64,000 bases of DNA, from the IMG/VR virus record IMGVR_UViG_3300050343_000182, one strand, 5' to 3'. The stretch is from a virus. The notes under the pieces were generated by a model. The model was not told the DNA's origin, did not search any database, and saw only the letters and a program-made list of their open reading frames with translations. Positions 7,815 through 45,155 of this stretch are shown here, piece after piece (the first letter of the stretch is position 1; each line of letters starts with the position of its first letter). A program made the position numbers and the translations under genes.

Positions 7815-10049
7815 ATGGCTGCTATCCCATCACAACTAACATCGCTAGACTTCTTTGAGATTAAAGAGTCTATCAAATCCTACCTCAGAACGCGTAACGA
7901 GTTTACAGATTACGACTTTGAAGGTAGTGCTGCGGCGTATCTTATTGATACCCTCGCTTATAACACATATTATACGGCATTCAACGCTAACATGGCGCTG
8001 AATGAAGCATTTCTTGAGAGTGCTACGGTCAGAGATAACATTGTCCGCATTGCGAAGCAGTTAAATTACACTCCTAGGTCAATTAAAGCACCTAGAGCGT
8101 GTGTAACTATCCGTGTGCAGACACAACTTTCACTGAATGGCACCACATATCCAGAATTCTGCACACTTGCTGCAGGAGATGTGTTTGTTGCCCGTAACTT
8201 TAATGATACTTACACCTTCTGTGTAACCAGAGAGTTGCAAACTACGGTAAATCCCGCAACTGGTATCGCAGTGTTTGACCCTGTGCTCGTTTATCAGGGC
8301 AATTTACTTAAATTTAATTATACAGTTGACTATACAAAGAGACAAGACTATATCATCCCCACGGAAGATGTAGACACCGCCTTGGTTTATGTTGATATCT
8401 CACCTAATGCACAGTCGCAAGAGATTGACACATACAACCTTGCTGCAAACGTAACTACGCTTAACGATACTTCTCGTGTTTACTTCCTTGAGGAGTCTGA
8501 TGACCTTAGATACCGTCTAGTCTTCGGTGATGGCGTCCTTGGACGTAAATTGATTGATGGCGAATTCATCAGACTGTCCTATGTGACCACTTTTGGCGAA
8601 GAAGCAAACGGTTGTAAGGACTTTGCCTTCATTGGCACTATTAGAGATAGTGACCAACGTGCAATTGGACCTGCAAACATCGCAGTCGTCACTAGAGAGG
8701 CAGCAGCAGATGGTGAAGCACGCGAAAGTGCGCTATCAATTAAATTTAGAGCACCTAGAGCATTCGCTACTCAGAACAGAGCAGTGACTGAGACGGACTA
8801 TGAGCATATTGTCTCAGAAATCTATCCTCAAGCAGCTGCCGTGACCGCATACGGTGGTGAGAAACTCAATCCACCAATTTACGGTAAAGTTTATGTTGCC
8901 ATCCGTCCAAAAACGGGTAATAAACTGAATGAGACAACAAAAGCAAAGATCAGGAATGATCTGAAGCGTTATACGGTTGCATCAATTGATCCTGTGATCA
9001 TTGATCCTACTGTATTCTACGTTATTCCCAAATCTTACGTTTACTACGACGGTAATAACACTAATAAGAGTGGCGCACAACTCGCAAGTGACGTTTTGCG
9101 TAATGTTGACCAATTTAACAAGAATGGTCAGAATAATCGCTTTGGTGGTCGTATTGATACGTCCAAATATAACTCAATGGTCGATAATAGCGACCCTGCG
9201 ATTTCTGGTAGCGTTACTCAACTGACAGTCGGTCAAAATCTTGACCAATTCGAGATGGGAAGTGTTTTCACTCAATGTCTTGACTATGGTAACCCACTTT
9301 ATAACCCTGGCGATTATTCAGGCACCCCTGGTGGTAGTGGCGGTAGTGGTGGATATGATCCTGGCGATGGTAGCGGCGATAACAAAGACGGTCCTTGTTC
9401 TACCGATGCAGATTGTCCAGAAGGTCAAATTTGTATAGATGGTAGATGTCAAGATGATCCAAATGCTGGTGGAGGCAATGGTGACGATGGGAAGTGTGCT
9501 CCTGCTTTCTCTGTGGTCAAATCTGGCACATTCTATGCAACAGGTTACACCGAAGACCTTGTTAACTTGACCTTGCAAGGTTCTGGCACTAATTCAACCA
9601 GTCCTGTTGCGTCATCTCAGTCTGTTACAGACGAAAATCAAGTTTTGGTCCCCGTCAACATTAGAGATGATGGAAAAGGCAATCTTCTCCTTGTCACAAA
9701 AAGAGACGAGGTTGAAGTTGTGTTAAATAATGCTGTTGGTAGCGTTGACTATAGTACAGGTCAGGTTTGTGTAGGTCCCATTGCAATTGAAGGAACACCA
9801 GACGATACAACTCGTCTTCCTATTCAAGTATTACCTTATGGCGGATCTCTCACTATTCCACCTGGCGTTGATCCCACATTATTTGATGTTAATGTCTTCC
9901 CAATCGATTGGAAGACCAATGACATCTCAATCCCCAACTTCGATCCAAACAACTTTAGCGGTTACAACTTCGGTGACCCAAGTGGGATAAATATCATTGA
10001 TTATCCCACGGATAGTTTTACATATCCAGTAGATACCTCCTGTTTCTGA
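7815..10049 (+). CDS. g6: baseplate wedge subunit gp6
   Basis: LDFFEIKESIKSYL, DYDFEGS, NEAFLESATVRDNIVRIAKQLNYTP and TQNRAVTETDYE are canonical gp6 motifs. Confidence 0.93.
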   Translation: MAAIPSQLTSLDFFEIKESIKSYLRTRNEFTDYDFEGSAAAYLIDTLAYNTYYTAFNANMALNEAFLESATVRDNIVRIAKQLNYTPRSIKAPRACVTIRVQTQLSLNGTTYPEFCTLAAGDVFVARNFNDTYTFCVTRELQTTVNPATGIAVFDPVLVYQGNLLKFNYTVDYTKRQDYIIPTEDVDTALVYVDISPNAQSQEIDTYNLAANVTTLNDTSRVYFLEESDDLRYRLVFGDGVLGRKLIDGEFIRLSYVTTFGEEANGCKDFAFIGTIRDSDQRAIGPANIAVVTREAAADGEARESALSIKFRAPRAFATQNRAVTETDYEHIVSEIYPQAAAVTAYGGEKLNPPIYGKVYVAIRPKTGNKLNETTKAKIRNDLKRYTVASIDPVIIDPTVFYVIPKSYVYYDGNNTNKSGAQLASDVLRNVDQFNKNGQNNRFGGRIDTSKYNSMVDNSDPAISGSVTQLTVGQNLDQFEMGSVFTQCLDYGNPLYNPGDYSGTPGGSGGSGGYDPGDGSGDNKDGPCSTDADCPEGQICIDGRCQDDPNAGGGNGDDGKCAPAFSVVKSGTFYATGYTEDLVNLTLQGSGTNSTSPVASSQSVTDENQVLVPVNIRDDGKGNLLLVTKRDEVEVVLNNAVGSVDYSTGQVCVGPIAIEGTPDDTTRLPIQVLPYGGSLTIPPGVDPTLFDVNVFPIDWKTNDISIPNFDPNNFSGYNFGDPSGINIIDYPTDSFTYPVDTSCF
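9986..9993 (+). promoter_or_regulatory. T4-type late promoter for g7
   Basis: GATAAATA within the g6 3' end, about 60 nt before g7. Confidence 0.5.
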
Positions 10050-22000: not shown

Positions 22001-25000
22001 GTCTTCCATGGTGTTGCTACCAACAGATTCAAAGATGCCTCGGCAATGATCCTTGGTAACAAAGATCAAATCATTGATTTTGCTGAAGCAGAAATTGCTG
22101 TCAAGCACCCCAGATTCTACTTCCCTGGTGATATCATTACCAACTCCTGGAGTAGGTATTCTGACGCATATCGTTTGATCCAGAAAAATAAATCATACAT
22201 TGCTAATAAGGCATACGATGAGATGATGACGCAATATACGTCACTCACCGTTCCTGATCCTAATAAGTGCATCCGTGACCTTGAGTTGTATATCGATGCT
22301 ATCTCCATTGACATTTTCCGTGGTGGTAATGTCTATACTCGTAAACTTTGTGCCAAGTATTTTGATGTAGATGGCAACTTTGTGTATGTCAACAATGAGT
22401 CTGCTGAGACTCGTTATGGATTTGAAAAAGCAAAAGACATGATGAAGTTGGCAATCGTCAACAATCTGACTAATAGTTTCACTGTGCCAAGTGGTCAACC
22501 TAATCAAGGTATCACTTACGTTCCTTGGAGCGAGGTAGATCATGGTGGTTATGATGGCAACGGTATCACTGCTGACCCATCACCTAACGATCCTTATGGC
22601 ACTAACGGTGCTAACCAGTCTAACAATGGCACTGACAACTGCAGCGATGTCCAAGCAGCAATCACCACTCTCTATGATGTGGTTGATGAGACTCTGCTGA
22701 ATGGCACGCTGGTTGACCTCCCTGATGAGTCGAAAGGCACCTATTCTCCTGGTCAAATCAAGTGTCGTCGTGACATCGGTCTGATGATCGATGCCTTGGC
22801 AGAAGACGTTTCTCAGGGTGGTAACTACAACATCATCGAATTCACTAAGAAGTATTTCGATGCTGCTGGAGCACCTATTGCTAACGGTCTAATCGGTGAG
22901 TATGCAGAATCTCTGACTGCTATCGATAAGGCAATGCACTTGTCCTTCCAGGCAATCAACAACCTCCTCTATTATCAAGTCAATTCCAGGACTTCTGTCA
23001 CTGGATTCATGCTGAAAGATCCTACAACATATCAAGGATCCTACAGCGGTGGTGAAGATGACCTGCAAGAATTCGATGTGTCTGCTGCAGTCTACACACC
23101 TTCAAATGGTCAAATGGTTCTTACCATTGGCACTCACTCACTGACAACTTCGGATACTGTTACGATCCGTCCACACTCTCTGAAGTTTACTTGTGATTCG
23201 GATAACGATGCATCCTTCCACGACTATCCTCGTGCTGGAGATCCTGCATTCAACACTCCTCTTGCTATTAGTGCTGAGACTGGCACTACAATCACAGTCA
23301 ACGTTGGCGCATCTCCTCTGGTCCAATTCACACCAACTGCTGCTACCTACAATCCAGCAACGGGTGATATGGTATTGACTATTGGATCCCACAGTCTTGA
23401 AATCAATGACTATGTGACTATTGCTAACGATTCGTTGGTATTCACATGTGATATGGATGCTAATGGCACCACTCACACATATCCTAGATCTACTGACCCT
23501 GCATCTGGCAAGCGTCTGTTTATCCATGGTGCTGATGCAACCACCATTACGGTTAACGTTGCAGCATCTCCTGCTGATCAGCAGTATGCTCACACATTCG
23601 TTTCTGCTTCTGCCAATTCAGTCAGTAGTGGCGGTGGATATACACATACATTCGTCAAGGGACTGGATAATGCAGTCTTCACTGGCGGTGGCACAACTGC
23701 CAAGTATTTCGACCCTAATTACTACTCAGGCCGAAATGAAACAATCCAGAATTGTGCTAACGTCCAGGCATATATCGCTACGCTCGTAGACATCTCTACG
23801 ACTGCGATTGCAGCACAAAATCTCAATAATATTAACGCTCTCGCAAGCATCACTGATGGCACCTTCGTTGCTGGTGAAAACATCCGCACCACGAAGATTG
23901 CATATAAGGATCGTGCGGGTGGTTTGTTTATCGTTGGCGACACCATTACTGGTATTACTAGCGGTGCCCAATTTGAAGCAATTGGATCTAACTCTGGTTT
24001 GAAGTGGATCTTTGCTGACGCTGTTACTGGATCATTCCAGGATGGTGAGTATATTACCAACTCCACCACTGCTAACCAAAACGGTGTTTCTCTAAGTGTT
24101 ATCGAGAAATACAAGAGACTTAGCGGTAAGAAGTCTATCAAATTCCCATCTACTGGATATTTGGTCACTAAAGATAGTTACGACTTCTCCTTCGGCAATA
24201 CTGCAGACTTTACTGTCCAAGGTTGGTTTAGAGCAGATAACCTGAGCACAACTCAGCATCTGTTTGACTTCCGTCGTCTGTCTGCTACCGCTGGTTTGAG
24301 AATTACTCTGCAGACTTCTGGTGCAATCACTGTCTACAACGGCACATCTCAACTGCTGACTGGTGGCACGCTGCTTGCTAATAACTGGCATCACGTTGCA
24401 GTTGTCAGGACTACTAGCGTCTTACAACTCTATGTTGATGGCGTGCAGGTTGGTGGCAACTACGCTGATACCAACGATTATGGTTATGCTGCTATCTACG
24501 TCGGCGCTGACTTCAACGCTGCCAATCAGTTTACTGGTTACATGGACAACGTGGTTGTTAAGAATGGAGAGTCCGACTTCAACACTGGATTCGTGCCTCC
24601 TACTCAGATCGACTACTCTAACCAGTATGTGAAGTTTGGTCTTGACGGTGAGCAACCATTCGTCATGGATAATCAGGAAACATATGCTATCTACACTGGT
24701 CAGCGTATCTCCTCTGCTGCTATCAAGGAACTTAACTACGATCAAAACTTTGCAATCATTGAAAACGTTGATCTTGGTAGATCAGATCACAGAAACTGTG
24801 CTGATATTATCGATCTTAACGCTGCCTGGATTGCTGAAGAAGCAGTCGGTAGAATGGAAGCAGCATTCCCTGATTTTGTCATCCCAGGCAACAACGTGGC
24901 CGAAGGTAGTTATGGTGGCACCAACAAGTGTATCAGGGATACTAAAGACTACATCATCGGCGCTCTTGTCAAGGACTTGAGAGACGGTGGTAACTACAAC

Positions 25001-28000
25001 TCACTATACACCGCTCGTACTTACCTCGAAGCATCAGGCAAACTGAAGCACGTTGGTAACGAGATTCTACAAACTCTGTATGCATGGGATCAGGCATTCG
25101 TCCTTTGTAAGTATGTAATTACTACAACTGACACAACTCTGACTGGCACCTATACAAACAGATTGAGACTTCCCAACAACTTCGCAACTCCTGCATCTCA
25201 ATCCATCCAAGATGAGTTTGATACTCTGGGTCGTGAAGTGCTAGAAGTCCTTGCACCTAATCCTGATATTTTCAGAGACACTGGTGTCTTGGTCTGGAAA
25301 AACCGCGACTATATCGCAGAAGAAGTTGCTGGATACATCCTTAATAAGTATGAGATTGACCTCAATGGCACGCTCACACAGTTCTTGGAAATGCCTGGTT
25401 ATGGTCAACCATACTGCGAGAGGGATGTTAAGCAATTCATTCTCCCTGCTGTGATTGCTGACCTTTGCACGGGTGGCACATACAATGTGGAAGCAGTCAT
25501 TGATAATTATCTGGATGATCAAAACAACATCCTTCATGTTGAGCATGAGTTGAATCCAATGCTTGATGCATTCCATCATGCCAAGTATCTCACACAGAAA
25601 GCAGGTAACAACTTGCTCCTTTCTCCTGGAGAAGTTTCTGGAGATCTTGGTATCCCAGCATGGGCACAAGATGATTACCATACACCTCTGTATACTTCCC
25701 GTGGTGCATTTAGAGATGATACCATCATTATCGATGATGAAGGATATCCTCAGGATAACGTTTCTAACTGGAATCGTTATAAGGATGCTACCAATGCTAT
25801 CGCGGCAAACATTGATCTGATTGCACATGAGGCAGTCGAGACAATGAATGACATGTCCAAGTATGCCCTATTCCAAATCAAGGGTGGTCCTGTTAACTGT
25901 AGTGATGACGTTAAGGATATCCTTAAGGCTCTTGTCCATGACCTCAACTACAACTGTAATGAAAGAACATGGGATGCTGCAAATCTCTACGTTGAGCCAG
26001 AGAATAATTCTCTGAAGCACATCGAAGACGATTGGGAAGCAACTGTCTCCGTCATGAAAATTGTTAAGGATATTGCAACCATAACCATGAGAAATGGTTT
26101 CGGTAGAGATTATATCCCTGGCAACGATCCTAATAACGTTGATCCTTCTACATACGAGGCAAATCCCAAAGAGCAAATCTTTGCTGATTGTGCCGATGCT
26201 ATTGATGCAAACATTCGTTGGATTGCTGAGCAAGCAGTTAAGGCAGGTCAGACACAGTATCCTTCACTGAGTATTAACGGTGGAATTTACGGTGGTCAGC
26301 AATACACTCCATCGGATGCAACTTACATTGCATCAAGTGGTGAGATGGTCATTACCATGGCAGGTCATGGTTTGGTTACAGGTAACAGAGTTACCGTTAG
26401 ACCTGATTCTATTGGATTTACATGCACACTTGATGGTAACAACGTTACCAACTACTATCCCCGTAAAGGTGACCCTGCATACACCACATCTAGATTAATT
26501 ACTGCACATACCACTGATACGATTACGATCAACGTTGGTGCATCTCCTGCAGGTGAGCAATATACTCATACCTTTGTCAATGCACATGAAGGTGCTGTTG
26601 TTTCTAACGGTAGCATCGATTGCGTCCATGACGTGACTGACATCCTCAGAGCACTGGTCTTCAACCTCAAGTACGATGGAGACAACTGGATCAACTGGGT
26701 ATCTGAGTTCTATACAACATACAGTGGATCTCTCGCACACGTTACATCTCTGGCAACAGAGGTAAATTGGATTCTGGAAGAAGCGAAGAGGCTTGTGAAG
26801 CGTGCAATGCGTGGTCAAATTATTACTAACGTTGCATCATACAGCGGTGGCGTCCAGGCATTCTCCGAGGCAGTCCCCAAACCTACTACGGTGCTCCGCA
26901 ATTCATTGGTTGATGAGGGTATCACTCTTGGTGGAGATTACAATAACGTCGTTACTCGCACATTTACCAACGGCACAAACAACATTGCAAGTGGATCTGC
27001 TTCTGCAACTGGTATTACCAATGACGAAGATCTGGTTTGTAGTTGTGTAACCGTGCTTCCTGCTGGCACACCTAGCGATGGCGTCCTCTGGGAGCTTGGT
27101 GGAAACGGTGCTGGTGCATTCATTGGTATCAGAGACAGCGGCACATACCTCCGTCTCCGTGCTGGTAATGGTGCTAACTCCTATGCAGGTGGTGCATCTA
27201 CTGCTAGCGACAACGGTCTTGCACTCCTTGATGTCCAAGTCTCTACTCTCTCAGATTACTTCGATGGTGGTGAGCATGAGATCACTTGGGAAATTAGAGT
27301 TGGCGGCACAGTTGCTTCTGGATCTGGTCGTGTCAAACTCTGGATTGACGGCAACCTTATTGGTGAAGCTTCAACTCCTGGACTAAACACTGGTCTTTAT
27401 GAGGCAGGTGGATTGCTGGCAGGGGGATCTACTGGTGGTTTTGCCACAATGTCTTCTGACAGCACCGTCCCACAAGGAGAGCCTACAGCATCATGGGCAT
27501 ACACAACAGGTGATATGTCATACTACAGATCACGTCTGGTCGATCCTATCTACACAGGTAGTGAGTCTGATAATGTTGCAACCGAAGTTGATACTCTAAT
27601 GCAACTGGTCACAGATGCAATTAGCAATCCTGCTGATGTTACAAACCGCGTTAGCATCCTACCTAAGATCTGGCCTATTAAATATACGCCTGATATTGCG
27701 GTTAGGGACACTGGTCTTACCTACGACTCCTCTGCTGCTGAGTGGAATCAGACTTGTGCTGAAGTTGCTTCTGCTATCGATACACTTCTTGAGATTTACA
27801 TCGATACAATTGAAAACGCAGCAAACAACAACACAAATCAGTTGGATTCCATCGTTAGGACAACTAGACTTGACGCTTACACAAATAGCAACTATCAGCA
27901 AGGTACATGTGAAGGACCACAATCCGCGATCGACACCTTGTTTGACATCATGGTTGATACTCTTGGCGCTGGATTAAATACCGACAAATCTATCGCTAAC

Positions 28001-31000
28001 ATGCTGCTCTTTAACAAAGATGCTATCGCACAGAGAGCGTTTGATGAAACTGTGACTTACTATGGCACCACTGAAATGACAGTGGACTTCTGTGCTGACA
28101 TCCTCAAGGCAGTCAGATATGACATGATCACTGGCGGTAACGCAGGTGCATTTAGACTGGTCCAAAACTGGTTTGACGGTGAAGGGAACTTCATTGCATT
28201 CCAGGATATAGCTCGCACACACTTGATCTATGCAAACACTCGCGTGCGTGAGTATATCAAGTCTGTGTTGTATCAGTTGACTGAAGATCCTGGTTGGACA
28301 ACCTACAATACCTATCAGTTAGGTATCGATGGTCGTTTGGATTACAACCGTGAGGCATCTGAATTTATCATTGACTCCTCTATCAATGCCATTGAGTATT
28401 CATTAGAGACATCTAAATTCCCAACAGAAGGTAGCGTTACTTGGGTCCCAAGTAGCGATGCAGTTAACATCAACACCAAGTATGAATTGGGTTATGACTA
28501 TAACACTGATCCTGCTCTGGTTACTCTTACTCCTATCGTCCCCGTTGGTTTCGACCGCGCTGAATATAGAGTCAGAATTAACCGCGTTAACTCCTTCCGT
28601 CGTGGTGACATCCTACAGTATATCCCAGCATCTGAGACTTCAGTCGCAGCATTTACTGGTCAGACGTACTGGTATGTGATGACTGCCACTGCACAGTGGT
28701 TTGAAGTTGGTGCTCACTACATGCACGATGGTAGATTTAGAAGAATTGAAGTTAACACTGCCAACACTGGTCAGCAGATCTTCTCCGTCGTCAGACGTAC
28801 TGGTATCGATAGGTCTGCTTCTCTCTTCCCAGCAGATCCTTCACAGACTCCTATCCAGGGTGGATTCAACCCCGCAGATGTTATCTACGGCACCACGTCT
28901 GAATCTTCATCTGAAGTTGGTAGCATCTCGCTCAACCAAGCAGAGATTAACAGACTCTATACTCGTTATAATCTGAATAACGTAAGTCAGAATCTGGGTG
29001 TTTATGAAAACTTCCAGAACGGTGAGCAAATCACAGTCCAATCAAATCCTGCTGTTTCTGGCATAATTCTCCAGTCTGATAGGACCGATAACGACGGTCT
29101 CAACTTCGTCAATCTAACTACTGTCGCGGGTGTGATCAACGTAGGCGATATCTTGGTTGGTGCTGATAGTGGCACGACTGCCGAAGTTACCTCCTTCGAT
29201 TCTCGCATGTTGATTAACGTTGAGAGAGGATCATTCGCACAGGGCGACTGGTTGTTTGACAAGGCATCTGCTACTGAGGCATACGCTAACACATATCTCA
29301 ATAAGTCTGGATCTCTTACAGGTAATGACGGTGGTCGTATTACGATTGACGTTGAAACCATCGGAGATGCATGGGATGCTGGCGATATCATCTACGGTAG
29401 CGTCACTGACTACATCCTCGAAATTAAGGGTCTCTCTGGCACACAGATTCAACTTAACCAGTATATCCACGGCACCAACATCTATCAGTTGGAGCTTGGC
29501 ACTGCAATCGTTGACACTGGCATTTCCGATACATTCCGTGTTGGTGATGAGGTCGTCCTCCTGCAAGGCACCACACTGAAGGATCCTGGGTTCCGTGCAA
29601 CGGTAACTGAATATATCAATGGCATCAACGCAGATCCTGCTGATCCAAACTATGGCATCCATCGCTTGTTTATCGGTAACTTGATTCCTATAGGCACGGG
29701 TGAAGATATCACTGCTCTTACCATTGGATCTAATAACATCGGTAAACTTGATCTTGGATCTAACTTCCCAAGCATCTACGCTAACGTTACCTCGGTCATA
29801 GACACTACATATAACTCCTACGGGCGCGTGGCTGCTATTGACCAGCAGGGTATCACAGCAACCGTCTGGTTGGAAAATGTCAAGGGTGACTTCCTTAACA
29901 ATATGACCGTCGTCTCCGACTATGGTTGGGGTGGTGTGGTTGCTAAGGCACGCACGCTTGAGGGTCGCGTTGATCGTTACTTCCGTGGTTTCGACGGTAG
30001 TCAGACACAGTTTGATCTCACGATCAGCAATGGTGAAGCATACTTCCCAGATCCCGCTGGTCACATGCTCATCTTCGTCAATGGCATCCTACAACCTCCT
30101 GGTGGTAACAACTCCTACGTTGCATTCTCAGACAAGATTAACTTCTCTGAGGCACCTGACATTGGATCTGAATTCGTTGGTTACTACGTTGGTAAACTCC
30201 GTCAGATGGACGATATCAGCTTCGAGTTTGACTCCTTGCGCTCGTCCTTCAACCTCAGACGTGAAGGTCTCTTCTACTCGCTGACTCTGACTGAAGGTGT
30301 TTCTTCTAACGTGATTCGCCCAGAAAACAACATCATCGTTTCACTCAACGGTATTATTCAAGAACCTGGCGTCGCATACGAGATCGTCGGATCTAGAATC
30401 ATCTTTGCTGAAGTGCCTCGCGCAGGATCAACCTTTGTTGGATTCTCCTACATTGGATCTGATACTGACGTGATCGCTGCAACCGTTGTGCCACCTGTGG
30501 AAGCAGGTGACAAACTTGAGATTGATGGTGAGGAATTCGCTCGTGACGTTGCTCTGATCGAATCTTCAAACTCCTTGATCACCTTTGAATACACAGGATC
30601 TGTTAAGGGACGTAACGCTGCTGCATTGGCAACAATCCGCTCTGGTCAGTTGAATAGTGCAATCCTCACCAACTCTGGCGATGGTTACACCTCACGCCCC
30701 AACGTGGACGTGATTTCATCCTCAGGTTTCGATGGTCGTATCAAGGCACTCATGGGTATCACACGCATTGACGTGAAGACCCCTGGTGTTTCTTATCTAC
30801 AACCATTAGTTGAGATTGACAATATTGTCCCAGACGACTTTGTTAATCCTTCAGGCACGCCTGTCAACGGTGGTAGAGATATCTACAACGCTGATGAGGC
30901 AATTGATGGCGACACCACTACGATTACTCCTGGCGCGATTGCGATCTCTCAGGATCCTGTAAACGTAACGGTTAACCAAGGTCAGACTGCATCCTTCACG

Positions 31001-31287: not shown

Positions 31288-32880
31288 ATGGGGGCAACTG
31301 CAAGTTATAACGATGCCACTGACATTCTTACAGTAGAGGCGGATGGTCTTCCCTCTCCTGTAGGGTTTGGCACGTTTCCTAATGCCAACAACCCAAACAC
31401 AGTAACGGAGCAAGATTTCGATCATGCTTTTACTTACCGTGGTGGGACCTTTGGTATTAGTCGCACATTCGATACTAACGTTTGGAATCAAGACGGGTTC
31501 CTTAGGTCTATAGTCATATCTGGTAATGATAACTCGTTGTTTAACAATGAGATTCAAGTGGGTGACAGACTTATGGTTACCTTCAGTGATGGTATTAAAA
31601 GAGTATTCCTCTATAAGGGTACTACATTTACATCCATCGAAGACGAATGTTGGTTGGCAACATCAGATAGACTTGACTTTATTATGAGAGACCAAGAGTC
31701 TCTAACTAGCGGCACATATGAGTATTATGATCAGCGAAATGGTCGGAGCGCAACTCCTCTTGGTACTATTGGCATTGCCGCTAATGGCGTTGCTTTGTTT
31801 AACCCTTCTGCTGGTGCTGGTGGAAACCCCCCAGTAGGATTCAGTTGGAATGCCCACTATCCACAGTCTCCTGTAGATTTTGGTGATGATGATTGTGGTG
31901 GACATCCTGAGCAAAGTGGTCAGTATCATTATCACGATACACACTTCTTAGATTGCTGGCGGGAAGGGTCCTCGATGGCAGGATACAATGATTACTATGG
32001 CACTACACAATATAACGGCGATAACCTGAGACATCCTGATGGTCATTCTAAGATCATCGGTATTGCATTTGATGGATTCCCCATTTATGGACCTTATGCT
32101 TATGCATCTCCATGGGACAATCTGACTACTCCCAGAATTATGAAGTCTTCCTACTCAACTAAATCAGTTGAAACGACAGATAGACCTGACTATGGTAACA
32201 CCATCCAAAACCCCCCTGCAGGCGCTCTGGTGGAGGACTGGGAGTATGTAGAGGCAACGGGTGACCTAGACATCCATAATGGTAGATTTTGCATTACTCC
32301 AGAATTCCAGGGTGGCACCTTTGCATATTTCTTATCTGTAGACCCAGACGACATTGATCTCCCTGAGTTTCCATACATGATTGGATCTTCCACTAGGGAG
32401 ACCATCAATACAAACTTTACATTACAAGCACCTGCTGCTCCACCCAGTGGCGGTGGTGGTGATGGTGGACCACCAGTACTTCCAACTCTGGTGTTTACAT
32501 CACAACCTCAGAATGCAACAACAAACCCTGGAGAAACGGCAACGTTTACTGTGCAGGCAGAGATCAGTCCAGAAAACGGACCTATTGCATATCAGTGGTA
32601 TCGCTCCACAGACGGCGGTTTCGCATTCGCTGCTATTACAGGAGCAACTGCAAACTCCTATACACTCAGCACTCTTGCATACATGACGGGATACAGATTC
32701 CGTTGCCGTATCATCGGTCCTTTGGGAGTATCAATTCAAGCAGAAAACTCACCACTTGATTCCAATGCAGCAGTATTGACTGTTACTGGATCTGGCGGTG
32801 GAAGCGGATCTACCGCTAATAGATTCGATAGCACGCAGAGTACTCTCGACTCTACGGCACAAACCTTCGATGGCACCTAA
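31288..32880 (+). CDS. YHYH-domain virion protein with C-terminal Ig-like domain
   Basis: TPLGTIGIAANGVALFNP, GGHPEQSGQYHYHD and HSKIIGIAFDGFPIYGPY; Ig-like FTSQPQNATTNPGETATFTV...YQWY. Confidence 0.85.
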   Translation: MGATASYNDATDILTVEADGLPSPVGFGTFPNANNPNTVTEQDFDHAFTYRGGTFGISRTFDTNVWNQDGFLRSIVISGNDNSLFNNEIQVGDRLMVTFSDGIKRVFLYKGTTFTSIEDECWLATSDRLDFIMRDQESLTSGTYEYYDQRNGRSATPLGTIGIAANGVALFNPSAGAGGNPPVGFSWNAHYPQSPVDFGDDDCGGHPEQSGQYHYHDTHFLDCWREGSSMAGYNDYYGTTQYNGDNLRHPDGHSKIIGIAFDGFPIYGPYAYASPWDNLTTPRIMKSSYSTKSVETTDRPDYGNTIQNPPAGALVEDWEYVEATGDLDIHNGRFCITPEFQGGTFAYFLSVDPDDIDLPEFPYMIGSSTRETINTNFTLQAPAAPPSGGGGDGGPPVLPTLVFTSQPQNATTNPGETATFTVQAEISPENGPIAYQWYRSTDGGFAFAAITGATANSYTLSTLAYMTGYRFRCRIIGPLGVSIQAENSPLDSNAAVLTVTGSGGGSGSTANRFDSTQSTLDSTAQTFDGT

Positions 32881-37847: not shown

Positions 37848-40800
37848 ATGCCCCAGAATACCAATCTAAATATTGCTCCTTATTTCGACGACTTCGATAA
37901 GGATAAGAATTTCTACAGAGTGTTATTCCGCCCTGGATATCCTATCCAAGCGCGTGAATTAACGACTCTACAATCGATTCTCCAGAATCAGATTGAATCC
38001 ATCGGTCAACACTTCTTCAAAGAAGGCGCGATGGTTATCCCTGGTCAGGTCGGTTATGACCTGAATGTGCAGGCAATCATTCTGCAACAATCATTCCTAG
38101 GTGTCGATGTCGAAACCTACAGGACTCAACTGCATGGTCAGATTGTTGAGGGTATCACGACTGGCGTTAAAGCAAAGGTCTTGTATTCAATTGCTGCTTC
38201 TGAATCTGAGCGTGGTTACGTCACTCTATACGTTAAGTATATCGAGTCTGGTGACACAGTTTCTGACACAACCATTAAAGGATTCCAATCTAATGAGCAG
38301 TTGCTTGCTCAAAACGAAATTACTTTCGGCACAACACTGATCGAAATTGGATCACCATTTGGACAGTTGCTACCCGTTGACTCTACTGCGGTTGCATCTG
38401 CTGCATACATTAACAATGGTGTGTACTTTATTAGAGGTCACTTTGTTGATGTTGCATCTGCAAACCTGATCCTTGAGCAATATAGCAATAACCCTTCTTA
38501 CAGGGTTGGTCTGGAAGTTAGTGAATCTATTGTTACCCCAGAAGACGATCCGTCACTGAATGACAACGCTGCAGGAACTTCAAACTACTCAGCACCTGGC
38601 GGTCATAGATTTAAGATTAAGACTACCCTTGTCAAGAAGGCAATCAATGATTCGACTGACAAAAACTTCGTTGAATTACTACGAATCAACAATAGTAAAG
38701 TTGAGCAGTTTGTTGATCATACTGCATACTCAGAGCTTGAGAAGTCGATGGCACGTCGGACCTATGAAGAGTCTGGCGACTATGTTATCGACACTTTCAG
38801 TATCAAGGCAAGAGAATGTCTTGATGATGGTTTTAACAACGGGGTCTACACTCCTACTCAAACGACTCAGCAAAACAATATTCCTACAGATGATCTCCTA
38901 AGTTATGAGATCTCTCCTGGTAGAGCGTATGTGAAAGGATACAGGACTGAATTCCTTACACCTCAGTATGTTGACTCTGCCAAACCTAGAGATTTTGCTT
39001 GTGTAGAAAACGGTATTATCCACTTCAGACTTGGCAACTTTGTTAAAGTCTACGATCAGTATGGTTGGGCTGACCTAACTGGTGAAGGTGTGTCTGATGC
39101 ATACCAAGTTATCGAATTATACGATGACTGGAATCTAGGCGTATCCAACTCAATTGTTGGTAATCAGATCGGTCGGGCTCGTATTGTCCAACTTCAAGTT
39201 GATCAGGCAAACCAGTATGACATGTGGTTCTTTGATCCACAGATGTTTACTGCTATAAACTTTGCATCTGGTAACAACTCTGTTTCTATTGGTGATGTGC
39301 TTAGAGGTCGCACCTCTGGTGCCCGTGGTTTCGTTGCTGATAGTGGTAGCAGCACTCACTGTAAACTAGAGCAGGTCTCTGGTGTCTTCCTTAACAACGA
39401 AGTTGTTGAAAGAGATGGTCGTGTAATCGGCACACTGGAAGCAGCACATACTTATAACCTATCCGATGTCCGTCGTTCTGTTGGTAGAAATGATAGCAAC
39501 GTTGTAACATTTGCAGCAAACTGGTTGCTGAATGATAATGCTTCTATTGAGTCTTCTACCGTTACTGTAAGTGGCACTGGTGCTCTTTCTACAGGTTTCA
39601 GGACCAAGTTTGCAGAAGATCTCCGTCCTGGTGATGTTGTTACTACAACTGCATCTGGTCTAAATGGTGGCAATACTTTAAGAATTAAGAGAGTTGATCC
39701 TACTCTGATTGCTACCAACACTGGTAACATCGCTACAGGTGGCACACCAGTCTTTGATTACCTTAATCAAACCGCCATTATGGATGCCTCCCTCAAGAAG
39801 GGTAGTGGCAATGCTGATGGTGAGTATGCTGAGATGGTAAGGATGCGTCCTTTCATCTTCCAGAAAGACTATCAGAATGGTGAGTTGTCAATTGACGCTC
39901 CTAGAACTTCGATGAAGTCTATCTCTGACGAGTCATTCTTTGTATACAGGACATTCGCTAACAAGACCGTTGTGTCTGGTGGTGTTACTGTGTCTCTGCC
40001 TGAATCCGAGCAGTTTGCAGCACTCGATGATGAAAACTATGTGTTGACGATTGTTGCTGAGTCTGGATCTTCATATAGTGTTGGTGATAACCTTGACATT
40101 GATAATCTCAATGACCTTGGATCTCTGACTGTTACCTTCGGTGCTGATGCACAGTCTATTACCATCTCTGGTTTGGCTAACGTCAACACCGTTAAGTTGA
40201 CTGCTCTTATCTCTAAGAATATCGTCACCAGAAAGATTAAGACTGCCGCTAAGATGCGTGCAATGAAGGTGACCCGCACACGTATTAACAATGACCAAAC
40301 CAAGTATGGTCTGGCATATGGTAACCTGTATGGCACCCGTATTGAAGATGAAGAGATTTCATTTGCATTGAATGATGTCTATAAGATTCATGCTGTATAT
40401 GAGTCTGAGGGTGATAATGATGCTGAATCACCTTATATGGTGTTGTCAGAATCTACCTTCTTTGATAACGGATCAGTTGTTGTAGGTAAGACCTCTGGTG
40501 CTCGTGGTCGAGTTATCCAGTTTGTCAACAGCACACTGAGACTGTACTTCGTTGCACTTAACGAAATTCCATTCATCCCTGGCGAGACCATTGATGGTGT
40601 TGATGATGACGGCATTCCTCTGCAGGCAATTGTTGATGACTCTGACGGATCCGTTTCTAAGGGATCTAAAGTTGTCACAACCCAGTTTGAATTGGAAAGT
40701 GGTCAGAAGGCACACTTCTATGATGTCTGTAAACTGGCTCGGATGCCTGGTTTCTCCCCACCAATTCGTAAGATACTTGTAATCTTTGACTACTTCTTGC

Positions 40801-43800
40801 ATGAGTCTTCAGGTGATTACTTCTCAGCCCAGTCTTACACTGGTATCATGTATAAGGAGATTCCTAAGTATAAACTAGATGGATCGATTAACTATATCCG
40901 TGACCAGATTGACTTCCGTCCTGGTATCGGTGAATTAGCATCTGGATCTGGCACCATCACGTCACCTTTCTTTGTGAATTGTGCGTCACTTGATTTTGGA
41001 TCTAGACAGTTTGATACCTCTGGTGGTGTCGGTGGATCTACCATCTTCGATATCCCTAAGGTTAACACACAATTTAGATGTGACTACTGCTACTATCTCC
41101 CTAGAGCAGACAAGTTGTATTTGACACATGACAACAAACTGAAAATTGTCAAGGGTGTGTCCTCTGAGGATGTTCCTCATCCTGATAAGATTGACAATGC
41201 GATGCTTCTCGCAACGATTGAGATGCGTCCATATGTGTATGACGTTGAGCGTGATGTCCTGATCTATCCTGAGATCATCAAGCGTTATACCATGAAGGAC
41301 ATCGGAGATCTGGAGACCAGACTCTCCCACGTTGAGTATTACACTTCACTGTCTCTGCTAGAAGTACAAGCAGACAACACTAAGACATATGATGATAACG
41401 GTTTCGACCGTCTGAAGAATGGTTACGTTGTAGATGACTTCACCGACCACACTGTTGGTGACGTTCTCAGCATTGATTATAAGTGCTCCATGGACTTCAA
41501 AGAGGGTCACCTCCGTCCTTCGCACTATACTTCTAACGTGCCCCTGCAAATTAACATGGGTGCATCCAGCAACGTCGTTAAGACTACTGGAAACATGGTG
41601 ATGCTGCCTTATGAAGATCTGGCAATCATTACTCAACCATATGCATCTAGGACTGAGAATGTTAACCCATTCAACGTGTTTACATTCATTGGTCGTATTG
41701 ACCTGACACCTGCATCTGACGACTGGATTGATATCGAGCGTCTTCCTGCTCGTGTTGAGAACGTTGAAGGTGACTTCTCTGCTGTTGCTAGAGACCTTCA
41801 GATTGATCAGAATGGTTTTGCTCCTCTCCAATGGGGTGGTTGGCAAACTAACTGGACTGGTGAATCTCTCCAATCAACCACTCAAACTAGAAACAGGTCT
41901 GGTAGTTTCTCCTCTGGTGGTCGTAGACTCGGTAGATTGGGTCACGGTCAAGGAAGACAACCTCTGTTTGTGCATGAGAGACGCACCTATCGTGTTGTTA
42001 ACAACCAGGCACGTCAAGGCGTGAGAACTCGCGTTACGCCCAAGATTGATAGAAAGTCTTTGGGTGATACCATGCTGTCACAAACAGCAATCCCCTGGAT
42101 TAGATCTAGAAACATCGGTTTCAACATCGATCGCCTCAAGCCTCGCACAAGAATGTATTACTTCTTCGATGGCGTTAATGTCAGCGGTTATGTAACACCT
42201 AAGGTTATTGAGCTTACTAAGTCTTCTACTGCTGATCCCAACTCTAACGAGACCCCATTCGTGGTGGGCGAGACTGTGGTAGGTCAGACCTCTGGCGCAA
42301 GAGTATTAGTTGCTCCTGCCAATGACGGATATAAGACTGACCCATATGGTATTGGTCCAACTGGACTCGCTGAGTCTTATGCATCACAAACCAACTTCCT
42401 GAATATTGACATCACTGCAATGGCAGAGACAGTCAATCCTAACTTCTACGGTAACGTCAACGTGGGTGAAGTCCTTCTTGGATTGACCTCTGGTGCTCGT
42501 GCTGTTGTAAGAGATCGTCGTCTTCTTTCCGATAACGTTGGTAACCTACAAGGCACGTTCTTCATTCCTTCTCCTAAGAATGATTCAAACCCACGCTGGG
42601 CAACTGGCACAAGGACGGTTAGAGTCACAACTTCGGATACGAATGATAGGACTCCTGGAAATGTGGATTCCTCTGCAGACGCATCATACTCCGCAACTGG
42701 CACCTTACAAACTGTTAGAGAAAACATTCTTGCCGTCCGTAATGCTGAGATCGTCCGCGATACAGTTAATGACGAAAGGACTGTTATTACTACCAGGACT
42801 GAGCAACGTCAGATTGGTTGGTATGACCCTCTTGCACAATCCTTTATTTGCGATTCGGAAGGCGGCGTATTCCTGACAGGTGTTGACATCTTCTTCAGGA
42901 CTAAGGACGCTAACATTCCTATCTCAATTCAGATCAGGACCATGGAGAATGGTTATCCTACTAAGGATATCATTCCTTTCTCTGATACTACTATCGATCC
43001 TGACACTGTTGAATTGTCGGAAAACGCAAGTATTCCTACAAGATTTACATTTAGATCTCCTGTTTACATTAAGTCAAACATTGAATATTGCTTCGTGCTT
43101 CTGTCTGACTCCAACGAATATAACGTCTGGATCTCCAGAATGGGTGATGTTGATGTGACAGGTACAAGGACAATCTCCGAGCAACCATATGCTGGTGTGC
43201 TCTTCAAGTCACAAAACGCTTCTACCTGGACTGCTGACCAGTATGAAGATTTGAAGTTTACCATGTATCGTGCTGAGTTTACTGCAAACTTAGGCACAGC
43301 AATCTTTAACAACGCTGAGCTTGGTAAGGGTAACAATGGTATTCACAGACTGATTGAAAATCCAATCCAGACTCTGAAACCTAAGCAGACTCTCACGCTT
43401 CCTGTTGATAGTAACTACACCTTTACAGTTGGTGCAAGAATCATTCAAACACCTTCTAATGCAGAAGGTACTATTGTTGAATTTGATTCTATATCCAATC
43501 CTGAAACTATTACTATTACAGATATTGATGGTATCTGGTCTGCTGGTTTCCTTGATGCCAACAACAACACATTCCAAGGCATCGCTTCCTCCCAATCTGT
43601 CGCTACGATTATCCTGTCTGCGATCTTCAACGGCACGTTTGAGGTTGGTGATGTTGTAAGTGGATCTACATCTGCTTCAACTGGTGTTGTCACAGCATAT
43701 GATACAGGCACGCAGACTCTGACACTCAACTACATTACTAGAGCATTTGATCTTTCAGATACTCTATCTGAGCCAGGTGGCACATCTGCAACGATCACTA

Positions 43801-45155
43801 GCATCGTCTACAGCGGCGATTCCTACGATTCATTCCCAACTTCTTCTCCTTCTTATCCTAACGATGACAAGGAAGTGCTGGTTTATCACAGAAACCATGG
43901 TATGCATCAACGTAGTAATAACGTTGAGGTTGAGGGCATTATCTCAGAAGTGCCTCCTACTACATTGACCACTACCCTGACTGCTGGAGCAACTTCCATC
44001 CAAGTTAATGATGGATCTCAGTTCCATCAAATTATCGGTGGATCTCCAATTGGTAACCTCAACCAAGGTTATCTTAAGATTGAAGATGAGATTATTCAAT
44101 ACTCCTCAATCTCTGTTAACGGTCAAGTCATCACAGTGGCAACCTCTGGTAGAGGTAACAGTGGCACTGCTGATGTTGAGCACGCCTCTGGTGCAATTGT
44201 CGAATGCTACAACCTCGATGGCATTCCTCTGACTCAAATCAATAAGGTCCACACTACTATCTCTTGCCCATGGTTAGATACCTACATGTTGCACATTGAT
44301 AGTGTTGCAACTAACGGTATTCGTGGTGGTGGCACCATGGTTTATTCTTCTCAGAATGTCCAGTTTGAAACCATTACACCTACGGTGTCTACGATGGTTA
44401 TGGCAGATACAAGTCTGTCAGCAAGACTGAATACTACTACTGCTACATCAGTTGGTGATGGATCTAATGTAGTTGACCAAAACTCCTTCATCAATAATGG
44501 CACTTATGTTGACATTGTATTGAATGAGCAAAACGTGTTTACTGCTCCTCAGATGGTTGCATCTAAGATTAATGAGCAGAACAAACTGGATGGTAACAAG
44601 TCCCTTACTATGGCAATCGCACTTGAGACTGAAAAATCATCACTCTCTCCTTGTATTGACCTTGACCGTGTGTCACTGATTACAACATCTAACCGCGTAA
44701 ATATGTGGCCAGGTGGACAATCAACTTACGGTCAGCAATCACAAATTGATAGAGATCAAGATGTTTCTACTCTTGCTGTTGGTGATCAAAATGATGCTGT
44801 CTATGTCACACGTCTGGCACGTTTGGGCAAAGAAGCACGCTCACTGAAGATTGACTTCCAAGTTACCCGTCACCCTGCTACCGAGCTTCGTATCTACTAC
44901 AAGGCATTCAAGGTTGGTGATGCTACTGATCCTAATACTATTGGTTGGACACAAATGGGTCTTCCCACTTCCAATCAAAACTTAGGTGAAGCATATGATA
45001 CAACTCCTACAGAAGAATACCTCTGGAAGGATTATACATATGAAGCAAGGGGACTTAACTTCAACGCTTTCCAAGTGAAGATTGTAATGAGATCTAAAAA
45101 CCAAGCACGAGTACCACTCATAGCTGATCTTAGATCCATTGCTCTTGCAACCTAA
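37848..45155 (+). CDS. large virion structural protein, VrlC/DUF4815-like (2435 aa)
   Basis: MPQNTNLNIAPYFDDFD...FYRVLFRPGYPIQARELTTLQSILQNQIE and DPLAQSF...GVFLTGVDIFF. Confidence 0.85.
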   Translation: MPQNTNLNIAPYFDDFDKDKNFYRVLFRPGYPIQARELTTLQSILQNQIESIGQHFFKEGAMVIPGQVGYDLNVQAIILQQSFLGVDVETYRTQLHGQIVEGITTGVKAKVLYSIAASESERGYVTLYVKYIESGDTVSDTTIKGFQSNEQLLAQNEITFGTTLIEIGSPFGQLLPVDSTAVASAAYINNGVYFIRGHFVDVASANLILEQYSNNPSYRVGLEVSESIVTPEDDPSLNDNAAGTSNYSAPGGHRFKIKTTLVKKAINDSTDKNFVELLRINNSKVEQFVDHTAYSELEKSMARRTYEESGDYVIDTFSIKARECLDDGFNNGVYTPTQTTQQNNIPTDDLLSYEISPGRAYVKGYRTEFLTPQYVDSAKPRDFACVENGIIHFRLGNFVKVYDQYGWADLTGEGVSDAYQVIELYDDWNLGVSNSIVGNQIGRARIVQLQVDQANQYDMWFFDPQMFTAINFASGNNSVSIGDVLRGRTSGARGFVADSGSSTHCKLEQVSGVFLNNEVVERDGRVIGTLEAAHTYNLSDVRRSVGRNDSNVVTFAANWLLNDNASIESSTVTVSGTGALSTGFRTKFAEDLRPGDVVTTTASGLNGGNTLRIKRVDPTLIATNTGNIATGGTPVFDYLNQTAIMDASLKKGSGNADGEYAEMVRMRPFIFQKDYQNGELSIDAPRTSMKSISDESFFVYRTFANKTVVSGGVTVSLPESEQFAALDDENYVLTIVAESGSSYSVGDNLDIDNLNDLGSLTVTFGADAQSITISGLANVNTVKLTALISKNIVTRKIKTAAKMRAMKVTRTRINNDQTKYGLAYGNLYGTRIEDEEISFALNDVYKIHAVYESEGDNDAESPYMVLSESTFFDNGSVVVGKTSGARGRVIQFVNSTLRLYFVALNEIPFIPGETIDGVDDDGIPLQAIVDDSDGSVSKGSKVVTTQFELESGQKAHFYDVCKLARMPGFSPPIRKILVIFDYFLHESSGDYFSAQSYTGIMYKEIPKYKLDGSINYIRDQIDFRPGIGELASGSGTITSPFFVNCASLDFGSRQFDTSGGVGGSTIFDIPKVNTQFRCDYCYYLPRADKLYLTHDNKLKIVKGVSSEDVPHPDKIDNAMLLATIEMRPYVYDVERDVLIYPEIIKRYTMKDIGDLETRLSHVEYYTSLSLLEVQADNTKTYDDNGFDRLKNGYVVDDFTDHTVGDVLSIDYKCSMDFKEGHLRPSHYTSNVPLQINMGASSNVVKTTGNMVMLPYEDLAIITQPYASRTENVNPFNVFTFIGRIDLTPASDDWIDIERLPARVENVEGDFSAVARDLQIDQNGFAPLQWGGWQTNWTGESLQSTTQTRNRSGSFSSGGRRLGRLGHGQGRQPLFVHERRTYRVVNNQARQGVRTRVTPKIDRKSLGDTMLSQTAIPWIRSRNIGFNIDRLKPRTRMYYFFDGVNVSGYVTPKVIELTKSSTADPNSNETPFVVGETVVGQTSGARVLVAPANDGYKTDPYGIGPTGLAESYASQTNFLNIDITAMAETVNPNFYGNVNVGEVLLGLTSGARAVVRDRRLLSDNVGNLQGTFFIPSPKNDSNPRWATGTRTVRVTTSDTNDRTPGNVDSSADASYSATGTLQTVRENILAVRNAEIVRDTVNDERTVITTRTEQRQIGWYDPLAQSFICDSEGGVFLTGVDIFFRTKDANIPISIQIRTMENGYPTKDIIPFSDTTIDPDTVELSENASIPTRFTFRSPVYIKSNIEYCFVLLSDSNEYNVWISRMGDVDVTGTRTISEQPYAGVLFKSQNASTWTADQYEDLKFTMYRAEFTANLGTAIFNNAELGKGNNGIHRLIENPIQTLKPKQTLTLPVDSNYTFTVGARIIQTPSNAEGTIVEFDSISNPETITITDIDGIWSAGFLDANNNTFQGIASSQSVATIILSAIFNGTFEVGDVVSGSTSASTGVVTAYDTGTQTLTLNYITRAFDLSDTLSEPGGTSATITSIVYSGDSYDSFPTSSPSYPNDDKEVLVYHRNHGMHQRSNNVEVEGIISEVPPTTLTTTLTAGATSIQVNDGSQFHQIIGGSPIGNLNQGYLKIEDEIIQYSSISVNGQVITVATSGRGNSGTADVEHASGAIVECYNLDGIPLTQINKVHTTISCPWLDTYMLHIDSVATNGIRGGGTMVYSSQNVQFETITPTVSTMVMADTSLSARLNTTTATSVGDGSNVVDQNSFINNGTYVDIVLNEQNVFTAPQMVASKINEQNKLDGNKSLTMAIALETEKSSLSPCIDLDRVSLITTSNRVNMWPGGQSTYGQQSQIDRDQDVSTLAVGDQNDAVYVTRLARLGKEARSLKIDFQVTRHPATELRIYYKAFKVGDATDPNTIGWTQMGLPTSNQNLGEAYDTTPTEEYLWKDYTYEARGLNFNAFQVKIVMRSKNQARVPLIADLRSIALAT

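Follow-up and report, generated by a model that had tools for sequence, protein, structure and literature searches.

Can a fold of the cyanobacterial light-harvesting antenna be part of a virus particle, and could it carry a pigment there? This question is raised by the IMG/VR virus record IMGVR_UViG_3300050343_000182, of which a stretch of 64,000 nucleotides (hereafter the window) was analysed. The window contains the structural module of a marine T4-like cyanomyovirus, including a giant open reading frame (ORF) of 7072 amino acids (aa) in the position of the baseplate protein gp7. An initial annotation, made from the sequence alone, had described repeats within this ORF that resemble phycobiliproteins (PBPs) and contain motifs for the attachment of bilins. 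According to the profile comparisons and structure predictions presented here, these repeats are almost certainly homologous to PBPs and adopt a globin-like fold.

An array of phycobiliprotein-like repeats in a giant ORF

The region that had been described (22022-28410) lies in frame within one ORF and corresponds to aa 3990-6119. An iterated profile search (jackhmmer) begun from one repeat revealed eight related segments, one of them a mere fragment, so that the earlier count of approximately seven repeats is correct. The array spans residues 3986-6081 of the ORF and consists of five complete repeats, one that lacks a first helix of its own, one interrupted by an insert and one fragment that comprises a single helix; the same search detected no repeat in the other ORFs of the window. 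All six cysteine motifs of the initial annotation, including the two that it had called degenerate, are present at the coordinates that it gave. The full Cys-x-Arg-Asp motif (C-x-R-D) is found in four of the eight repeats, two repeats contain CSDD or CVHD instead, and one lacks the motif Cys. The ORF and its repeats are as follows:

10055-31273, + strand: giant virion ORF, 7072 aa (ORF list; PHROG 701 and PHROG 2885; synteny)
22010-22129 (aa 3986-4025), + strand: repeat fragment 1, helix-B-like part only (jackhmmer, profile positions 8-42; match aa 3990-4024)
22130-22729, + strand: repeat 2, complete predicted PBP fold with helix H, CIRD at 22268 (match aa 4026-4175)
22730-23056, + strand: repeat 3, without its own helix B, CRRD at 22763 (jackhmmer, profile positions 41-126; aa 4231-4316)
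24767-25255, + strand: repeat 4, complete predicted PBP fold, CIRD at 24929 (match aa 4912-5056)
25265-25645, + strand: repeat 5, CERD at 25415 (jackhmmer; aa 5087-5189)
25757-26170, + strand: repeat 6, degenerate CSDD at 25898 (jackhmmer; aa 5237-5362)
26159-26926, + strand: repeat 7, split, CVHD at 26621 (jackhmmer, profile positions 10-44 and 38-118)
27956-28297, + strand: repeat 8, motif Cys lost (jackhmmer, profile positions 11-95; aa 5978-6057)

In repeat 7, helix B (26159-26329) is separated from the remainder of the domain (26516-26926) by a beta-rich insert, about 60-100 aa long, that matches a PHROG 1276 module; the matched pieces are aa 5376-5410 and 5514-5594. Repeat 8 has a Cys nearby, at 28091, but not in register with that of the motif.

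The relationship to PBPs was detected at the level of sequence profiles. The Pfam family PF00502 matched the region with 36.0 bits (E 8.5e-9; Pfam cut-off 22.2). Among the single repeats, repeat 2 scored above this cut-off (23.3 bits) and repeat 4 below it (16.6 bits, E 0.0078). A PDB search with a profile of the seven window repeats returned 31 matches with an E-value below 10, of which 27 were PBPs, the best being phycocyanin alpha (E 0.0026). The resulting alignment placed the repeat Cys on Cys84 and a Gly-Gly pair on positions 102-103. PBPs were reached with the profile only, as a phmmer search with the whole region against the PDB sequences returned solely a lectin-like S-layer domain. 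Precomputed Pfam annotations flagged PF00502 only as ‘faint’ on two relatives. Furthermore, a deep repeat profile (445 repeats from 151 proteins) was aligned using hhalign with a PBP profile, for which 80 cyanobacterial loci had supplied 141 phycocyanin sequences (alpha and beta). This alignment reached a probability of 94.7% (E 6e-8, score 50.7, 93 columns), with repeat positions 15-108 on PBP positions 38-139. Controls with reversed or column-shuffled PBP alignments remained at probabilities of at most 0.6% and scores of at most 15.6.

The predicted structures point to the same family. An AlphaFold2 model of repeat 2, for which the input alignment consisted of phage repeats only, had a predicted local distance difference test score (pLDDT) of 79.4 and a predicted template modelling score of 0.81. 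It contains a long disordered loop between helices G and H. All of the approximately 48 top matches of this model in a Foldseek search against the PDB were PBPs. In a structural scan of 48,161 chains, PBPs together with the PBP domain of ApcE occupied ranks 1-8 (Z 15.2 to 11.6), and the alignment with phycoerythrin beta (VIA) covered 149 aa at 3.3 Å (Z 15.2). A second AlphaFold model comprising repeats 4-6 showed the helix pattern three times, with a confidence that drops along the model: pLDDT is high in repeat 4, about 70-85 in repeat 5 and low (about 50-60) in repeat 6. Here, repeat 4 aligned with PBP beta chains (VIA) over 141 residues (chain residues 27-177) with a Z-score of 17.5 and a root-mean-square deviation (rmsd) of 2.0 Å. 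Other globin folds, namely globin-coupled sensors, photocobilins and RsbR, trailed the PBPs in the structural scan at Z-scores of about 8-10.5.

Searching the repeats against PF00502 and the PDB by HMMER, and modelling them with AlphaFold for comparison by Foldseek, had been proposed in the initial annotation as a check, and both routes led to PBPs. The likeness goes beyond chance by five lines of evidence: PF00502, the PDB profile search, hhalign with its failed controls, the predicted structure and the alignment of the repeat Cys with Cys84. Sequence identity between repeats and PBPs is 13-17%. It could be argued that the resemblance reflects convergence or a modelling artefact, i.e. that AlphaFold and Pfam map an unrelated helical bundle onto PBPs, as the Pfam scores of the single repeats are marginal, the Foldseek E-values amount to only about 1e-3 to 1e-2 and the background Z-scores of helical folds are high. 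However, four independent methods give one family in one register (Cys on Cys84, Gly-Gly on 102-103), the shuffled controls fail and the PBPs lie 3-7 Z units above the other globin folds, which renders this explanation highly improbable.

The structural alignments begin at chain residues 25-33, past the X and Y helices of PBPs, and such helices were seen in neither of the two predicted models. This indicates that the phage domain, as modelled, corresponds only to helices A/B, E, F', G and H of a PBP, which form its globin-like core. Thus, the earlier term ‘captured globin-fold antenna domains’ is appropriate with respect to the PBP relationship and the globin-like fold, but these are not whole antenna subunits. 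With the family present only in cyanophages and PBPs, to our knowledge, restricted to cyanobacteria and plastids, parsimony favours capture from a host.

The fourth motif of the initial annotation, a Cys-bearing helix near 22640, corresponds to helix H in the AlphaFold model, and the structural alignment reaches the C-terminus of the PBP chain. A helix that starts with Asn/Asp/Thr-Cys-Ala/Ser-Asp/Glu/Asn recurs in the ORF at 22640, 23753, 24797, 26189, 27755 and 27908 and resembles the Cys-β153 region of PBPs, a site served by T-type lyases. A second Cys at the start of helix H was considered as a feature of the whole family and rejected: although common in this ORF, it occurs in just about 10% of the family units.

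Conservation of the bilin site and distribution of the family

The Cys84-x-Arg86-Asp87 triad, which binds and positions the bilin according to the initial annotation, is indeed kept in register in the repeats, since both HMMER and hhalign place the repeat Cys on Cys84. As the motif itself could bias the detection of repeats, they were re-detected with a profile that contained only the columns downstream of the motif. C-x-R-D was intact in 91% of the 1503 repeats recovered in this way, the Cys was conserved in 95.7% and the Asp in nearly all, at a repeat-to-repeat identity of only about 20%. Of 204 full units, 152 contain no Cys besides that of the motif. Moreover, the family has near-invariant residues that are absent from PBPs, i.e. 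Asp, Asn and Tyr at positions +14, +20 and +30 from the Cys. The conservation of the triad is hard to square with a pure scaffold and argues for a conserved ligand site or chemistry, although the ligand may not be a phycobilin. The gp7 array analysed here may be partly relaxed, as only half of the repeats retain the full triad, and any chromophore load would consequently be partial.

In line with this reservation, the Cys/Arg/Asp/Asp/Tyr site might accommodate a tetrapyrrole other than a phycobilin, a metal or a molecule of the host surface, with the Cys as a possible point of covalent attachment. The conserved constellation exceeds the triad of PBPs, and globin-fold sensors with haem or other cofactors follow directly after the PBPs in the structural comparison (Z about 8-10). 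Nevertheless, the repeats are closest to PBPs and not to haem globins in both sequence and structure, there is no conserved proximal His and the genomic association described below is with a bilin lyase. A different ligand or chemistry is hence improbable.

The repeat family is large. With the window repeat profile, 1094 representative proteins were found at E ≤1e-3 among 1.84 billion representatives of clusters at 50% identity. The best 150 of these 1094 proteins are all large phage proteins of 730-6982 aa with up to 34 repeats each. PBPs themselves cannot appear in a search of this size, as the library-wide E-values are too harsh. The repeats are mostly spaced by 160-180 aa, which equals the size of a PBP, while the unit is shorter in some proteins, at about 108-130 aa. 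In a tblastn search of 50,697 phage records, only phages of Synechococcus and Prochlorococcus matched, with 251 records for the window repeats and 98 and 26 records for two very divergent arrays. Using the gp6 of the window, 2366 records were found, and the repeat was present in none of the approximately 1900 non-cyanophage T4-like records among them. Full-text literature searches revealed no paper describing PBP-like domains in structural proteins of phages.

Two database entries of the family deserve mention. A 730-aa fragment with eight repeats is encoded on a 2.2-kb contig that was binned in a metagenome-assembled genome labelled Candidatus Nanopelagicaceae, a freshwater actinobacterium. 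This is probably a mis-binned phage contig, and it shows that fresh water harbours the family, too. In S-PM2 (NC_006820.1, 168872-169589), RefSeq places seven tRNA genes inside a repeat-bearing coding sequence of 3780 aa. The stretch coincides with an uninterrupted frame of 3792 aa that carries a PBP-like repeat, so that the placement of the tRNA genes looks like a coordinate shift in the annotation.

Bilin lyases, light-dependent adsorption and a possibly pigmented baseplate

We compared the occurrence of the repeats (repeat profile) with that of the bilin lyase CpeT (Pfam PF06206) in 23 complete cyanomyovirus genomes:

Repeats and CpeT: 16 genomes
Repeats, no CpeT: 3 genomes (S-BM3, ACG-2014f, DSL-LC03)
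CpeT, no repeats: 0 genomes
Neither repeats nor CpeT: 4 genomes (P-SSM2, S-SM2, S-SSM7, SynMITS9220M01)

CpeT was found only in repeat-bearing phages (16/16), and the reverse assumption, that every repeat-bearing phage has CpeT, was rejected on account of the three genomes in the second line. By a naive hypergeometric calculation, the four repeat-less genomes would all lack CpeT with a probability of 35/8855, i.e. about 0.004, a value that overstates the evidence because the genomes are related and some of them were chosen via their CpeT or repeat matches. In Syn1, S-PM2 and S-CAM1, cpeT is located 0.7-2 kb upstream of the repeat-bearing giant gene. The Syn1 gene (GU071105.1, 19950-20462) lies two genes upstream of the giant gene and encodes a full-length CpeT (PF06206, E 1.5e-35); no CpeT is listed for Syn1 in Table 3 of Sullivan et al. 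2010. The absence of CpeT from related IMG/VR records is uninformative, as these are fragments with a completeness of 33-51%. Gasper et al. are said to have found in 2017 that phage CpeT binds phycoerythrobilin tightly without passing it on to the beta subunit of the host, which would fit a so far unidentified substrate. The role of phage CpeT and of the bilin-synthesis genes has been described as unresolved, especially in Prochlorococcus phages, the hosts of which lack phycobilisomes (PMC3037559).

Light-dependent adsorption has been reported for phages in which the repeats could be sought. Adsorption in the dark was observed for P-SSM2 but for neither P-HM2 nor P-HM1 (Liu et al. 2019, PMC6628666), and the light-dependent adsorption of S-PM2 needs no photosynthesis of the host (PMC6628666, citing Jia 2010). 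Light-sensitive receptors or tail fibres were suggested as an explanation (Liu et al. 2019, PMC6628666). We detected five repeat matches in P-HM2, ten in S-PM2 and none in P-SSM2. This agreement between repeats and published phenotype in 3/3 phages is suggestive only.

A pigmented baseplate could be envisaged as follows. The array would consist of domains derived from a cyanobacterial PBP, strung together with lectin-like and beta-rich modules and projecting from the baseplate. During assembly in the infected cell, the single conserved Cys of the repeats, at least of the intact ones, would acquire a thioether-linked bilin provided by the host or by phage Ho1, PebS or PcyA. The attachment would be catalysed by a lyase, which could be phage CpeT or an enzyme of the host, or it would proceed autocatalytically, as in ApcE. 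The virion would then possess a few dozen chromophores, and light absorbed by the domains might trigger a conformational change of the baseplate or a fibre, which could contribute to the light-dependent adsorption of some cyanomyoviruses. The support for bilin attachment and a light response is circumstantial and comprises the conservation of the triad, the co-distribution with CpeT and the 3/3 match with the phenotype. We estimate the probability that the intact repeats are chromophorylated and the baseplate is light-responsive at about 0.4. A more far-reaching version is doubtful, namely a virion photoreceptor in which bilins bound covalently to PBP-derived baseplate or fibre domains gate adsorption by light, and in which cpeT and sometimes ho1, pebS and pcyA serve in part the maturation of the virion rather than the host antenna.

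Several observations weigh against a chromophorylated, light-responsive baseplate. The near-invariant Asp, Asn and Tyr of the family may point to another ligand or to a structural network, and part of the triad is lost in half of the window repeats. The co-occurrence and phenotype matches are few and without phylogenetic correction. S-BM3, ACG-2014f and DSL-LC03 contain repeats without CpeT, and the idea that they possess an S-type lyase instead was rejected, as PF09367 matched in none of the 23 genomes. Likewise, the repeats do not occur in all lyase-bearing cyanophages, since S-CBWM1 has an S-type lyase and no repeats. T-type lyases such as CpeT act on Cys-β153/155 and not on the Cys84-type site that is kept in the repeats (PMC10452541). 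Finally, pebS and ho1 are also present in the repeat-less phages P-SSM2 and S-SSM7 (Sullivan et al. 2010, Table 3).

Almost as likely as chromophorylation is that the repeats are apo-domains, in which a PBP fold captured long ago is reused without bilin as a rigid helical spacer or as a module that binds the host surface. The Cys, Arg and Asp would then serve folding, an inter-subunit disulfide or another contact. This is consistent with the family-specific invariant residues, the three genomes without CpeT, the mismatch between the type of site and the known specificity of T-type lyases and the degenerate triads in the window. The loss of the X/Y helices, the lectin-like and fibre-typical beta modules interleaved with the repeats and the fact that literature searches yielded no report of pigmented cyanophage particles point in the same direction. 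However, a scaffold has no evident need for three bilin-contact residues that are conserved at 91-98% amid an identity of about 20%, an intradomain disulfide is impossible with a lone Cys, and both the association with CpeT and the phenotype match would be left unexplained.

The only role of PBPs known to us is that of antenna proteins in cyanobacteria, red algae and cryptophytes, and a large virus-specific PBP branch that is built into the infection machinery would be new. With the repeats, there is a specific candidate for the molecule behind light-dependent cyanophage adsorption and also a possible substrate for phage CpeT and the phage bilin-synthesis genes. If pigmented, they would represent a photoreceptor borne by the virus particle; if they are apo-domains, they would still clearly exemplify how an antenna fold of the host has been put to use in building a virion. 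Virion pigment and light sensing have thus become testable questions.

The giant ORF in its genomic setting and comparison with known systems

The giant ORF starts six bases after the gene for gp6:

7815-10049, + strand: gp6 baseplate wedge protein (Pfam Gp6-like_1st, E 5.6e-17, and Gp6_C-I)

This is the position of gp7, the baseplate wedge initiator, and agrees with the name that the initial annotation had given to the protein. PHROG 701 (‘virion structural protein’), a family of giant cyanophage proteins, matches the ORF over its full length, and PHROG 2885 (‘baseplate wedge subunit’) matches it as well. PHROG families labelled baseplate wedge subunit match parts of the ORF, and no Pfam gp7 family was matched. 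The other window genes encode gp9/10-like and gp8-like proteins, a neck protein, gp15, a transaldolase and the terminase. The nearest isolate is the Synechococcus phage S-WAM1 (Kyanoviridae), which shows the same gene order; its homologue of 6737 aa is annotated as baseplate wedge initiator and is only 52% identical. A megablast search of the region against phage records gave no match.

Among the PBP-like repeats, the ORF contains a Concanavalin-A-like / Laminin_G_3 lectin-type domain (24160-24560, Pfam E 7e-18) and a second, Gly-rich beta region (about 27000-27450), and binding of the host surface would be a fitting role for this segment. At 23090-23620 and 26330-26515 (aa about 4345-4530 and 5425-5487), there are three copies of a beta-rich module (about 85 aa) that matches PHROG 1276. 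Each of these modules has a conserved Phe-Thr-Cys-Asp and a Tyr-Pro-Arg-x-x-Asp-Pro motif, and in repeat 7, one copy separates helix B from helix E. The giant ORF also contains a YHYH domain (PF14240, 14230-14670), which recurs in the protein encoded next downstream (530 aa, 31288-32880). A weak immunoglobulin-like match near the C-terminus of the giant ORF (30590-30830) is under the Pfam cut-off. Further downstream, an ORF of 2345 aa (45771-52808) has an N-terminal Mtd_N domain (major tropism determinant, E 1e-12), and its neighbour of 2435 aa (37848-45155) contains DUF4815; both are probably fibre proteins.

In comparison with known systems, the giant ORF shares with T4 gp7 the position after gp6 in the baseplate module, whereas T4 gp7 itself contains no PBP domain. 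Its full-length match places it with the giant gp7-like proteins of cyanomyoviruses (PHROG 701 / 2885). With regard to the repeats, globin-coupled sensors, the N-domain of RsbR and photocobilins use a globin-like fold as sensory input and are the next-best structural matches. They differ in that they show no sequence signal, have other cofactor sites and score clearly under the PBPs.

The alpha and beta subunits of PBPs (CpcA/B, CpeA/B, ApcA/B and the beta chains of cryptophytes) have the globin-like core with the same order of helices as the repeats. Both share Lys-Cys-x-Arg-Asp at the start of helix E, followed in the same register by Gly-Gly 18 residues on, and a domain size of about 140-165 aa. 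By profile the repeats are nearest to the alpha chains, and by structure to the beta chains. Unlike PBPs, the repeats are organised in tandem within virion proteins, which are mostly 700 to about 7000 aa long, and have their own invariant Asp, Asn and Tyr; in some relatives, the smallest unit measures about 108 aa. Without X/Y helices they have no basis for alpha-beta pairing or ring assembly, and given the tandem fusion in addition, assembly into (alpha-beta)3 rings is not expected.

The phycobilisome core-membrane linker ApcE resembles the phage repeats in that it has a PBP fold within a large multidomain protein, and its PBP domain is a close structural match (Z 12.9, rmsd 2.1 Å; Z 15.4, rmsd 1.8 Å). 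It differs by having one PBP domain and no array, by carrying the bilin at another Cys and by being a component of the cellular antenna and not a virion protein. ApcE attaches its own bilin without a lyase, which indicates that PBP domains embedded in larger proteins can be present in the holo form.

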